A stretch of DNA of 64,000 bases from an uncultured Methylomirabilota bacterium (GTDB lineage Bacteria > Methylomirabilota > Methylomirabilia > Methylomirabilales > 2-02-FULL-66-22): the NCBI GenBank assembly GCA_963845565.1, contig CAWJSJ010000005.1:96001-160000 (forward strand), written 5' to 3'. Numbering within the stretch: position 1 is the stretch's first letter; each line of letters starts with the position of its first letter. The position numbers were made by a program. This document shows positions 61,501-64,000 of this stretch, in pieces.

Positions 61501-64000
61501 GCCGAGGAAGGCGGGCGGCGCGTCTGGATGGCAGTGCTTGCACCGGGCGAGACTGACCCGGCGAAGGTCGCTTCACGGCACGTTCAGGAGGCATAAATTG
61601 ACTTTCTCGCCGGGCCCTGATATTCAACATCCCTGCCGAAGACTGCCAGGGAATGCGTATGGTGACCGCCGGCCGGCGCCCAGGGGCGTCGCCCGGAAAC
61701 GGAAAGGGGTGTGCCATGGAGTTCGCCGGACAGACAGCGATTGTTACCGGTGTGGCCCGCGGGTTCGGCCGCGCCATCGTCCGTCGGCTGGCGCGGGGCG
61801 GCGCCAGGGTCGTGGCGGCCGACATCAATCTGGCCGGAGCGCAGGAGACGGTCGGCCTGGTGAAGCAGGACGGCGTCGAGGCCATCGCGTTCCAGGTGGA
61901 CGTATCCTCGGCCACCAGCGTCGGGGCCATGGTGGAGACGGCGCTCACCAGGTACGGCAACCGCGTCGACATCCTGGTCAACAATGCCGGGATCTGGAAG
62001 CTCATCCCCACAGAAGAGACCAGCGAGGAGGAGTGGGACCGGATCGTCAATGTGAACATGAAGGGGACGTTCCTCTGCTGTCGGGCGGTCATCCCCATCA
62101 TGCGCAAGCAAGGCAAGGGCCACATCGTGAACATCGCGTCCATCGCCGCGCGGAACGGCGGGACGATGGCGGGGATCCACTACGTGGCGTCCAAGGGCGG
62201 CGTCCTGGCGATGACCAAGAAGCTGGGGAAGGAGCTGGGCCAGTACGGGATCGTGGTCAACGGCATCAATCCCGGGACCAGCGGCACCGAGATGACCAAG
62301 GATTGGCCCCAGAGCATCATGGAGGGGATCGTCAAGAACACGCCACTGGGGCGCCTGGTGGCTCCCGAGGACATCGCCGACGTCGTAGGCTTCCTGGCCT
62401 CTGATGCCGCCCGCTTCGTCCATGGCGAGACGGTGGAGGTGAACGGCGGCATCCTCTGCGACTAGTCGGCTGCTGAAAAAGGCCCATCTGCGGCGTTGGC
62501 GTGCTCGGGCGCTCGCTGCGGCGTACCTGGAGTACGCCTCGCTCCGCCCTTTGCCCGCCGCCTTGCATCTGGACCTTTTTGAGCAGCCTGAGGAGAAGTG
62601 GGTCCTTCTGCGACCTGGACTACGAAAGGGTTGACGGTTCGTTGGTTCGGCAGTTCGGTGTTTCCGAGTACCGCCGAACTGCCGAACTCTCGAACCGTCC
62701 AACGGTTCATTCTGGGGGGGTAGCCATGCGCTGGGTTCTGCTCAAGGACGGGCACGTGTTCGACCCCGAGGATCGGGGGGCGGCCGATGTCTTGTTGCTG
62801 GGGCGAGAGATTGTCGCCGTCGGGCCGGGTTTGGCAGCGCCGACGGGGGTCGGCGAGGGCGAGATCGTGGACGTCTCGGGTCACATGATGCTCCCCGGTC
62901 TCATTGACCCGCATATCCACGTCATGGGTGCAAGCGGGATGGGGGGACCCACCACGCGGAGCACGGACCTGCAGATCGAGCGGATCGCCGGCGTGGGTGT
63001 GACGACCGTCGTCTCCCCCCTGGGAGCCGACAGCCTGAGCCGGGACATTCCGTGTTTGCTGGCGCGTGCCGCCGCGCTGGAGTGCGAGGGGATCAGCGCC
63101 TACTGTTACACGGGGGGTTGGAAGAACCCGGTGCCGACGCTCAGCGGTGACCCGCAGGCGGATGTCGCCTATGTGGACCGGATTCTCGGAGTGAAGGTCG
63201 CGATCTCCGAGCCGATGTCTCCCGCGTACACCATCGAGGAGCTGTCCCGGCTGGCTCATGCGGCCTGGACCGGCGGCCGGCTGGCCGGGAAGCGCGCCGT
63301 GCTGCACATCCACGCCGGAGATCATCCGGACGGTCTCGCACCCGTGCTGGAAGTGCAACGGCGGACGGGCATCCCGGCAGACCGGCTGATGGTGACGCAC
63401 GTCAATCGCAACCCCGACCTCTGGCGTCAGGCGGTCGAGTTCGCCAGGGCGGGAGGCAGCATCGACCTCACGACGATGCAGCGGCCGGAGACCAACCACC
63501 TGCATGCCATCCCGGCGGCTCGCGCCATACGTGAGGCCCTGGAGTCGGGCGTGCCGGCGGCGCGGATGACCCTCTCGACGGACACCGGCGTGCCGTATCC
63601 AAGATTGGATGGAGCGGGTAATGTCGTCGGCCTCTACATGGCGGGGCCCGACGCCATCCTGGAAACCCTTCGCGAGTTGGTCCAGACGGGATTCTCGTGG
63701 GGGGAGGCCGCCGCGTTCGCGACGGTCCATACGGCCCACATCCTCGGTCTCTCGCGAAAGGGCCGGCTCGCGGCGGGGGCGGATGCCGACATCCTGGTTC
63801 TGGATGGGGCGGGCGAAGTCGACCGCGTGTTTGCGCGGGGCCGGGAGATGGTGGCGGATGGACAACCGGTCGTCCGTGGCCCCTTCGGGGCTCCGGCTGT
63901 GCAGCGATGAGCAGGAAAGGGTGTTCATGACGACGTATCGCATCACGGTCGTTCCTGGGGACGGCATTGGCCACGAAGTCATGGCGGAAGCGCGGAAGGT

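Follow-up and report, generated by a model that had tools for sequence, protein, structure and literature searches.

A hairpin MITE at stop codons of an uncultured Methylomirabilota bacterium, probably derived from an IS5-family element with a 4-bp YTAR target duplication

The genome of an uncultured Methylomirabilota bacterium harbors a family of short hairpin repeats, many of which begin directly behind the stop codon of a gene; they are probably MITEs derived from an IS of the IS5 family and moved in trans, their insertion producing a 4-bp YTAR duplication that leaves the stop codon intact. The copy described most closely here (the focal copy) lies in a window of 64,000 nt, the whole stretch of DNA analyzed (contig CAWJSJ010000005.1, positions 96,001 to 160,000), and it was found exactly where the survey's finding had placed it. 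The source genome, called G000 below, is a MAG of 98.7% completeness, and the labels G006 to G026 denote the relatives with which it was compared.

A profile search of the source genome with nhmmer returned 350 hits, which correspond to 212 non-overlapping loci of a hairpin repeat of ~152 nt (169 long copies, 26 with a short or degenerate right end and 17 fragments), more than the 107 near-full copies and 303 hits reported previously. The repeat has no coding capacity, its copies are many and dispersed, and filled as well as empty orthologous sites were found across the relatives, in agreement with a non-autonomous mobile element as proposed before. Gene ends were taken from home-made and crude gene calls (4971 genes covering 82% of the genome, with unreliable starts). 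Among the 169 long copies, a co-oriented gene ends exactly at model base 1 in 84 and 11 nt inside the element (+11) in 25, and a gene end is found at the right terminus in only 10. When long and short copies are taken together (n = 195), a co-oriented gene ends at the left edge in 97, which bears out the association with stop codons, and at +11 in 29, where 14 such genes had been claimed. The genes with a +11 end show a coding-type composition and finish with tails encoded by the element (-AGC, -TGC, -PGC, -AGR and similar). Overall, about two thirds of the copies touch a gene end. A comparable placement is seen in G014, which belongs to another family: 16 of its 42 distinct matches adjoin the end of a coding-type ORF on the left, one does so at +11, and no such match is seen on the right.

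The focal copy (Table 1) opens with a left terminal repeat and continues with a long imperfect hairpin, which an inverted copy of this repeat closes internally (~62574-62591); a tail of ~30 nt follows and ends in a third, degenerate terminal repeat. G006, G007 and G012 lack the element at the orthologous site, where TAA or TAG is followed by a diverged spacer. Another hairpin, made of 7-nt repeats, lies between the focal MITE and the amidohydrolase gene (~62630-62710). The second copy in the window is flanked by GTGA on the left, with the stop codon TGA at 45056-45058, and by CTAA on the right (45214-45217); a ribosome-binding site and then an ATG at 45228 follow on its 3' side, and G012, G021 and G008 have no element at this site. 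One copy is common to G000, G021 and G012, namely the third copy of the window, which is found at the orthologous site in both relatives as the same insertion. This third copy also contains a small nested palindrome. The gene upstream of the fourth copy runs into the MITE and is terminated there by a TGA belonging to the element (40047-40049), which gives it the tail -AGC.

Table 1. Focal MITE copy, its neighboring genes and the other copies of the family in the window (window positions).
Feature	Position	Strand	Remarks
Left target duplication copy, CTAG	62462..62465	+	4-bp length deduced from family flank statistics and the G026 IS copies
Stop codon TAG of short-chain dehydrogenase gene (gene 61653-62465)	62463-62465		adh_short_C2, E=2.7e-62
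Focal MITE copy, element proper, 154 nt	62466..62619	+	HMM score 146; fold computed
Right target duplication copy, CTAC	62620..62623	+	3 of 4 bases the same as in left CTAG
Amidohydrolase gene downstream of focal MITE	62726..63910	+	Co-directional
Second copy	45059..45213	+	Lies between two genes that encode one half each of a split transketolase
Third copy	47284..47453	+	Behind TAG (47281-47283) of a DctP-type solute-binding protein gene
Fourth copy	40039..40213	+	Right flank TTAG (40214-40217)
Fifth copy, more decayed	17770..17938	-	TAA 1 nt before model start

According to the survey's finding, the element inserts into TA and its terminal G rebuilds a TAG stop codon. The mobile and non-autonomous character of the element, its link to stop codons, its co-orientation with genes and the element-encoded tails all stand; the TA target and the rebuilding of TAG have to give way to a 4-bp YTAR duplication. 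In 77 copies with both ends well aligned, compared with 2000 shuffles as null, the base before the left TA equals the base before the right TA in 40 copies (26.9 expected; 0/2000 shuffles), and the base after the left TA equals the base after the right TA in 45 (33.3 expected, p = 0.0005), with no agreement in these copies at positions further out than N-TA-N. Because the flanking bases agree at N-TA-N only, the duplication of the MITE appears to be 4 bp long, the outer G/A and C/T being bases of the target. Identical 4-mers (TTAG, CTAG, CTAA) occur at both flanks in 10 of the 77 copies, with 4.7 expected. The logo of the target has the symmetric form (Y)YTAR(R); the consensus of the duplication is YTAR, with TA as its invariant core. 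Additionally, the abutted stops are TAG and TAA in a proportion of 61:22, no different from 1534:735 in the genome (p = 0.29), as expected if the original stop is kept and unlike what an always-rebuilt TAG would give. As for the number of stops reached, stop codons make up 776 of the 3073 non-coding YTAR sites, a null expectation of 25% against the 43% observed (83/195); a null from TA alone would place 11.6% of sites at stop codons.

The earlier statement that no autonomous element could be identified is right for the source genome itself and no longer holds beyond it, since G026, a member of the same genus, carries an IS5-family relative with matching ends, recognized by comparing the multi-copy IS of that genome. 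This IS is 1340 bp long and present in nine copies, eight at 100% and one at 99.9% identity, each with a perfect 4-bp duplication (CTAG in 7, TTAG in 1, CTAA in 1). Its transposase of 361 aa comprises DUF772 and DDE_Tnp_1 and scores 271 bits with the NCBIfam model NF033581 (IS5 family), for which the cut-off is 140. The ends are near-identical terminal repeats of the form CAGG[A/C]TGC[G/T]GAAAAAC, those of the G026 IS being CAGGATGCGGAAAAAC and, as reverse complement, CAGGCTGCGGAAAAAC. In the IS copies of G025 and G022, the 16 bases of the left end are identical to the reverse complement of the right end of the MITE consensus, and at the right end of the G025 IS the next ~8 bases match the MITE tail as well. 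The insertions of the G026 IS are recent; none of the nine lies at the end of a coding-type ORF and several are within ORFs. Some observations count against the IS5-type origin: G000 shows no match to PF01609 or PF13586 and no DNA match to the IS, and in G026, where the IS is active, the MITE is represented by just a handful of copies of a variant with nested small palindromes. Searches of G000 for DDE_3, DDE_Tnp_1 and DDE_Tnp_1_2 gave no matches, and the 26 isolated terminal-repeat matches outside its known copies include no inverted pair of IS size. The first 30 DDE_Tnp_1 loci of the same order were also considered as partner and rejected because their ends do not match.

Taking the terminal repeats, the 4-bp YTAR duplication and the DDE transposase of the partner together, the MITE of G000 can be assigned with good confidence to the IS5-family kind. 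The similarity of the ends and the shared duplication suggest that it was mobilized in trans by the IS transposase. An IS5-family DDE transposase would make a staggered cut at the 4-bp YTAR, all four bases being duplicated; where the TAR of the target was a stop codon, the original stop would survive as the left duplication copy and the element would start at the next base. The gene would stay intact after such an insertion because the left duplication copy retains its stop. YTAR is rare in this genome of 66% G+C and about a quarter of the non-coding YTAR sites are stop codons; therefore an insertion that does no harm would most often land at a stop. The copies are old, some being common to several species, and later decay would have changed TAA to TGA in the left flank and TA to TG or CA in the right flank. 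The -AGC tails and their stops would arise from insertion at out-of-frame sites in the last codons, the reading frame being ended by the TGA within the terminal repeat. It counts against this scheme that the left TA is absent in ~20 of the 25 long copies in which a gene ends at +11, with the right YTAR often kept, for which decay under G+C pressure is a plausible cause. The excess of stops beyond the YTAR null and the orientation bias of ~10:1 would come from orientation-dependent selection on an element transcribed in the 3' end of the mRNA; selection on the transcribed hairpin is our best guess for this remainder.

The 4-bp YTAR duplication is common to the MITE and to IS5 (IS5 group), for which 5'-YTAR-3' duplications are described in excerpts of PMC5009759. 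As in IS5-family and other DDE-derived MITEs, the element shares its terminal inverted repeats with an IS and lacks coding capacity; unlike them, it consists of a co-varying hairpin of ~124 nt with a third repeat at one end only, its copies are at a gene end in about two thirds of cases with a gene-directed orientation bias, and its genome has no transposase for it. The GTAG-tagged REPs are also palindromic repeats near or overlapping ORF ends (Di Nocera, De Gregorio, Rocco 2013, PMC3733652); REPs are 20-40 nt long, lack a target duplication and are linked to Y1 (RAYT) transposases, whereas the TAG or TAA next to the MITE is duplicated target and its partner a DDE transposase. SPRITE of Streptococcus pneumoniae is likewise a small repeat with a stem and a U-rich tract, enriched near the 3' ends of coding sequences and suspected to be a terminator. 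It differs in having 30 copies, only AAAA/TTTT termini and a mild strand bias (63% leading strand); neither a duplication nor a partner is known for it, and a position exactly at the stop is not reported (Croucher et al. 2011, PMC3049150). ERIC and Correia/NEMIS are hairpin MITEs that are transcribed and influence the adjacent mRNA in a way that is set by orientation (ERIC) or by RNase III cleavage (NEMIS); they belong to other sequence families, and a comparable exact adjacency to stop codons is not reported in the excerpts of PMC2229807. A search of the literature outside subscription journals found no prior description of this MITE family or of an IS5-type MITE at stop codons.

A Tc1/IS630-like MITE that inserts at TA, duplicates 2 bp and rebuilds TAG from TAA or TAG with its terminal G/C would agree with TA as the invariant core of the flanks and with the single filled/empty pairs, which are compatible with either a 2-bp or a 4-bp boundary, and for IS711, itself of the IS5 family, a duplication restricted to the TA of YTAR is reported (excerpts of PMC2266754). 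Such an origin is nevertheless highly improbable, as the bases outside TA agree between left and right far beyond the shuffles, the abutted TAG and TAA follow the genome ratio, the related IS has perfect 4-bp duplications in 9/9 copies and the bases outside TA do not pair as complementary element termini would (position 1 against last base: A-C 17, A-T 4, G-C 20, G-T 24); DDE_3, the IS630-type transposase, also had 0 matches in G000, the one genome searched for it. Barely credible is a REPIN-like origin, in which a Y1 (IS200/RAYT-like) transposase of G000 would move the element as single-stranded DNA and insert it 3' of a TAG-like tetranucleotide without duplication. REPINs are reported to be long hairpins with arm covariation, as is the MITE, four Y1_Tnp ORFs of ~355 aa are present in G000, and a strand-specific insertion would account for the orientation. 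The termini of GTAG REPs, moreover, often supply TAG stops to flanking ORFs (excerpts of PMC3733652). All this has to be set against the 4-bp target duplication, termini that match an IS5-family DDE element, an orientation independent of the direction of replication, and the lack of any terminal-repeat match near the four Y1 genes of G000.

Among copies located between co-directional genes, 133 of 162 lie in the orientation of the genes, in line with the 75 of 88 found before. In these contexts, the copies that abut a stop are 104 forward and 10 reverse against 29:19 elsewhere (Fisher odds ratio 6.8, p = 1e-5), and in convergent gaps the left end abuts the stop in 29 of 30. A palindromic target would lead to random orientation, and the 104:10 observed counts against the IS5-type explanation. 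Replication direction is ruled out as the cause: 87 forward stop-abutting copies belong to leading-strand and 39 to lagging-strand genes, which resembles the distribution of all genes (3410:1561). The bias does not change across the four quartiles of HMM score, with no age dependence seen, and the mean score is 123.7 for stop-abutting forward copies vs 122.2 for the rest. Selection looked for through copy conservation by HMM scores yielded no evidence, another point against the preferred explanation. No G+C asymmetry of the flanks able to orient insertion was found, the purine skew amounting to a symmetric extension of the target. Harm by re-initiation at the ATG of the right repeat in reverse copies was also considered and rejected, given that 4 or 5 of the 10 reverse stop-abutting copies (counted by eye) retain this ATG, with no visible depletion.

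The arms of the ~124-nt hairpin that forms the MITE body show strong compensatory covariation (21/23, 28/33 and 32/33 double changes stay paired, for example), which a DDE transposase does not need and which therefore counts against the IS5-type explanation in its simplest form. Both strands carry a long imperfect stem with a U5 tract after it; the tract lies at ~62576-62580 in the focal copy and at 45171-45175 in the copy between the transketolase genes. A simple consensus scan for promoters and terminators found nothing within the MITE. In 134 of 169 copies, the RNA of the reverse strand has the more stable fold. In mean folding energy, the 70 nt downstream of the right duplication do not differ from ordinary 3' regions (-24.7 vs -24.2 kcal/mol, p = 0.80), which rules out a preference for insertion beside native hairpins. 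Rfam returned only chance microRNA-like hits for the region, far below gathering scores. Window positions 38500-48500 were compared with two RNA and two DNA runs, all contig-only and breaking at the repeat; these contigs included no bridging contig and no clean empty allele, and 3' ends are not readable from them. One RNA-run contig omits 45033-45216, with unknown letters in between.

It is possible, although rather unlikely, that the stop-abutting copies are an exapted 3'-end module under positive selection and not merely tolerated, the hairpin 1 nt after the stop and its U5 tract acting in forward orientation only as mRNA stabilizer, terminator or ribosome-meltable terminator. The concentration of the bias at stop-abutting copies and in convergent gaps speaks for it, as do an orientation that follows the gene and not replication, the recurrence in another family (G014), the compensatory changes that keep the hairpin, the U5 tract that follows the stem, and the forward copy between the split-transketolase subunit genes, a gene arrangement that is not new. 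On the other hand, conservation is no higher in stop-abutting forward copies than in others, the reverse-strand RNA is the more stable one in most copies, hairpin and U5 tract exist in both orientations, and the region behind the MITE folds like any 3' region, therefore native terminators have not been replaced; 7 of the 10 reverse stop-abutting copies lie <=40 nt from the next called start (starts being unreliable), a misfit with the idea that reverse copies are intolerable in operons. That the ~100 forward copies one base after a stop form a 3'-end module spread by a transposon, as translation-sensing terminator or mRNA stabilizer, is doubtful. In such a module, the base of the hairpin would lie inside the footprint of the terminating ribosome and upstream translation would decide whether hairpin and U-tract form; working in one orientation and at the stop codon alone, it would explain the position-specific 10:1 bias. 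Quite improbable is an insertion machinery that senses gene polarity, for instance by way of transcription or of an asymmetric complex that has a single binding site on the left and two on the right, and sets orientation at insertion. The equal bias in all score quartiles, the third repeat on the right only and the lack of stronger conservation in the favored class would fit it; neither the target logo nor the composition of the flanks is asymmetric, however, non-abutting copies are only 29:19, and the nine recent insertions of the G026 IS show no preference for stop codons, none being at a coding-type ORF end. No IS5-family DDE transposase is known to read the direction of transcription.

With the IS5-type origin, the link to stop codons would have a mostly ordinary cause: the target is YTAR, a quarter of the harmless sites are stops, and the duplication leaves them intact. 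For annotation, caution is needed, as ~29 genes of G000 end in an element-encoded tail of the -AGC type, and gene calling or repeat masking that disregards the MITE will misplace gene ends. If the orientation bias and the maintenance of the hairpin reflect a function, the MITE would have equipped some hundred genes in an uncultured phylum with one and the same 3' end.

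The assembly of this genome (G000) comprises 5.36 Mb in six contigs with 66% G+C; the window corresponds to C5:96001-160000, and the focal MITE copy lies directly 3' of the TAG at window 62463–62465, the stop codon of a gene for a 270-aa short-chain dehydrogenase. Used as a BLAST query, this copy retrieved 283 matching pieces across the genome, and an nhmmer profile made from 106 near-full matches yielded 350 hits, which fall into 212 loci (169 long copies, 26 that are short or have a degenerate right end, and 17 fragments); many of these loci were matched on both strands because the core is nearly its own reverse complement. 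The anatomy described in the survey's finding was borne out: a left terminal repeat is followed by an imperfect hairpin of ~124 nt, which closes with the same repeat inverted at an internal position, and by a tail of ~30 nt that finishes in a third, inverted copy. No Rfam family matched the element. Genes were called with a simple codon-usage caller (4971 genes, 82% of the genome; stops TGA 2702, TAG 1534 and TAA 735), whose gene ends are reliable and starts unreliable. The stop of a co-oriented gene falls exactly at model base 1 in 84 of the 169 long copies and 11 nt inside the element in 25, and a gene ends at the right terminus in only 10; with short copies included, 97/195 have a stop at the left edge and 29/195 at +11, which recovers the survey's proportions on a larger count.

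The element had been taken to insert into TA and to rebuild a TAG stop with its terminal G, a reading that did not hold. Since a duplication confined to the TA of YTAR is reported in a passage of PMC2266754 for IS711, a member of the IS5 family, the length of the duplication was tested explicitly on the 77 copies whose two ends both aligned well. The base preceding TA is identical on the left and right in 40/77 (26.9 expected; 0 of 2000 shuffles reach 40), as is the base after TA in 45/77 (33.3 expected, p = 0.0005), and no left/right agreement was found beyond N-TA-N on either side; identical 4-mers still stand on both sides of ten copies (TTAG in six, CTAG in two, CTAA in two). At the left edge the triplet is TAG, TAA or TGA, with C or T at the mirror position on the right; the pairings of position 1 with the last base (A-C 17, A-T 4, G-C 20, G-T 24) are not those of complementary element termini. 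The outer bases thus form a direct repeat, so that the element proper begins with CAGG and ends with CCTG, and the target duplication is 4 bp, N-TA-N, with the consensus YTAR and a symmetric target logo, (Y)YTAR(R). YTAR duplications are made by IS5 according to a passage of PMC5009759. The repeat family of G000 is real and well observed, and belongs to an ordinary class, that of IS5-family MITEs.

Comparison with related genomes provides filled and empty sites. In G006, G007 and G012 the focal site lacks the element, and TAA or TAG is followed there by a diverged spacer. The copy between the genes of a split transketolase (see table) is absent in G012 and G021, which read ...GCA TGA AGGAGGGG..ATG; G000 reads ...GCG TGA, then the element, then CTAA GGGAGGGG..ATG, and the stop with its preceding base occurs twice around this copy. 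These subunit genes (window 45056–45230) are 11 nt apart in relatives and have the 155-nt hairpin element between them in G000; expression of the downstream subunit must therefore cross the element or start behind it. Another copy (window 47284) is found at an identical position in G000, G021 and G012, whose coding DNA is 84–88% identical, and is absent in G008, so at least some insertions are older than these species. Several copies carry in their arms a nested palindrome of ~22 nt (ACCCACC, 4 nt, GGTGGGT, with G/C flanks), which resembles a mobile, REP-like hairpin in its own right that lands in the MITE. Directly behind the focal copy (window 62630–62710) lies a long hairpin composed of GTTCGGC-like 7-nt repeats and the complementary units, and the same place in relatives holds other 7-nt units (CGCAGAT-like).

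Coordinates of the transketolase copy, the nested palindrome and the IS200/RAYT-like matches
Feature	Location	Locus labels	Context
MITE copy	window 45059-45213		between the two genes of a split transketolase (N-terminal half, C-terminal half)
Nested ~22-nt palindrome	window 47360-47385, 17880-17910; G026	L119-L122 (G026)	within MITE copies of G000, G012, G021, G026
Four Y1_Tnp (IS200/RAYT-like) matches	G000 C3:54130-54450, C1:43672-43992, C2:1922155-1922475, C2:558266-558610	L013-L016	

Given a 4-bp YTAR duplication, a stop codon struck by the element is preserved in the left copy and not rebuilt. In agreement with this, TAG:TAA among abutted stops is 61:22 vs 1534:735 genome-wide, which is no difference (p = 0.29). 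TGA accounts for 14/97 abutted stops, a frequency similar to that of TA-to-TG decay on the unselected right flank (14/77), and fits a TAA to TGA change after insertion. Outside the copies, 693 YTAR sites have their TAR as a called stop, 2185 are intergenic and 1589 lie within genes; when occupied sites were re-added (83 copies to stops, giving 776, and 112 others to intergenic sites, giving 2297), stops made up 25% of the 3073 non-coding YTAR sites vs 11.6% of non-coding TA sites. Stops actually account for 83/195 or 43% of the copies (p = 1e-7 against 25%, the true expectation being somewhat higher because missed genes inflate the intergenic YTAR class). Nine fresh IS copies in the same-genus genome G026, a small sample, include none at a coding-type ORF end (0/9) and several inside long ORFs, which fits a transposase that reads only YTAR, the remainder being what survives. 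The stop-codon link thus follows largely from the YTAR target and the stop-keeping duplication. Repeat termini that supply TAG stops were noted earlier for GTAG REPs, in a passage of PMC3733652.

Coding composition is normal in the 29 genes that end within the element, and their tail, [A/T/P/G]-G-[C/R], is encoded by the terminal repeat as far as its TGA. The base before CAGG opens a codon in their frame, hence the duplicated YTA would be a Leu or Val codon; CTN, TTA or GTG still stands there in 10 of the 25 long copies and is lacking in the other 15, and the frequency of YTAR on the right flank is close to that in the other classes. A weak explanation is that these copies were inserted long ago at out-of-frame YTAR within the final codons and then decayed, for which strong G+C pressure on third positions may be responsible. 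At the one such site compared (window 40038), the C-terminal tails of relatives are too variable to decide the origin.

The survey's statement that no autonomous element was identified stands for G000 itself, where searches for DDE_3, DDE_Tnp_1 and DDE_Tnp_1_2 transposases found none; it does not stand for the genus, in which the probable partner IS is identified. Multi-copy transposase loci gathered from two well-assembled same-genus genomes, G022 and G026, included a 1340-bp IS present in nine copies in G026 (eight 100% and one 99.9% identical), with a perfect 4-bp duplication at 9/9 (CTAG seven times, TTAG and CTAA once each) and the ends CAGGATGCGGAAAAAC and, reverse-complemented, CAGGCTGCGGAAAAAC. 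Its 361-aa protein is, by its profile matches, a predicted IS5-family transposase (NF033581, 271 bits where the cut-off is 140, with DUF772 and DDE_Tnp_1). In its relatives in G025 and G022, 16 nt of the left end match the reverse complement of the MITE consensus right end without a difference, and the bases that come next in the right end of the G025 element also agree with the MITE tail. With a threshold of E ≤ 1e-20, this IS or one related to it occurs in 4/66 genomes of the order (G026, G025, G022 and the unpublished G020, on which no conclusion rests), with none in G000.

Other mobile elements were also recorded. The four Y1_Tnp matches are paralogous, with open frames of about 351–363 aa that at three loci give a full-length protein bearing a long C-terminal extension, and no MITE copy lies beside any of these loci in G000. 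The mobilome of G026 is much more active than that of G000, and further IS families occur there in identical multiple copies of about 0.9, 1.4, 1.5 and 2.0 kb (L062–L071), one further family having its ends within CTAG/TTAG-like flanks. Contigs C1 (1.08 Mb), C2 (2.73 Mb) and C5 (1.02 Mb) of G000 hold about 20, 125 and 52 MITE copies, respectively; the G+C skew of C1 is about twice as strong as that of C2 and C5, estimated contamination is 6.4%, and C1 may belong to another replicon or another organism.

The left and internal arms of the hairpin co-vary strongly, double changes that keep the pair reaching 21/23 at 7-121, 28/33 at 16-112, 29/33 at 36-93 and 32/33 at 44-84, several-fold above independence. 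No co-variation links the third, terminal repeat to the left one; it is therefore hairpin pairing, not the identity of transposase binding sites, that is maintained. Part of the co-variation could come from subfamily descent or from conversion between copies; in one orthologous copy a compensated pair differs between G000 and G021/G012. Folding is more stable for the reverse-strand RNA in 134/169 copies.

Between co-directional genes, 133 copies are oriented with the genes and 29 against. Stop-abutting copies are 104 forward vs 10 reverse and non-abutting ones 29 vs 19 (Fisher odds ratio 6.8, p = 1e-5); in convergent gaps the left end is at the stop in 29/30 copies and the right end in 2, and divergent pairs hold only 3 copies. 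Forward stop-abutting copies divide 87:39 between leading- and lagging-strand genes and all genes 3410:1561, and the bias tracks the direction of the gene and not that of the replication fork. It recurs in G014, a genome of a different family within the order: there the left edge is at a coding-type ORF end in 16 of 42 distinct hits, +11 occurs in one and the right edge in none. The target and flanks show no asymmetry able to set orientation, the bias has no dependence on age, and the favoured class (forward, stop-abutting) is not better conserved. The only asymmetry of the element is its 30-nt tail, which shifts the start of the hairpin from one base past the stop in forward copies to 30 nt later in reverse ones. 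Additionally, a copy at a stop is necessarily transcribed with its gene; copies further downstream may sit behind a native terminator. We therefore infer that the bias comes from orientation-dependent selection at the RNA level, and the position-specific, gene-directed orientation bias together with the maintained hairpin are the parts worth experiment.
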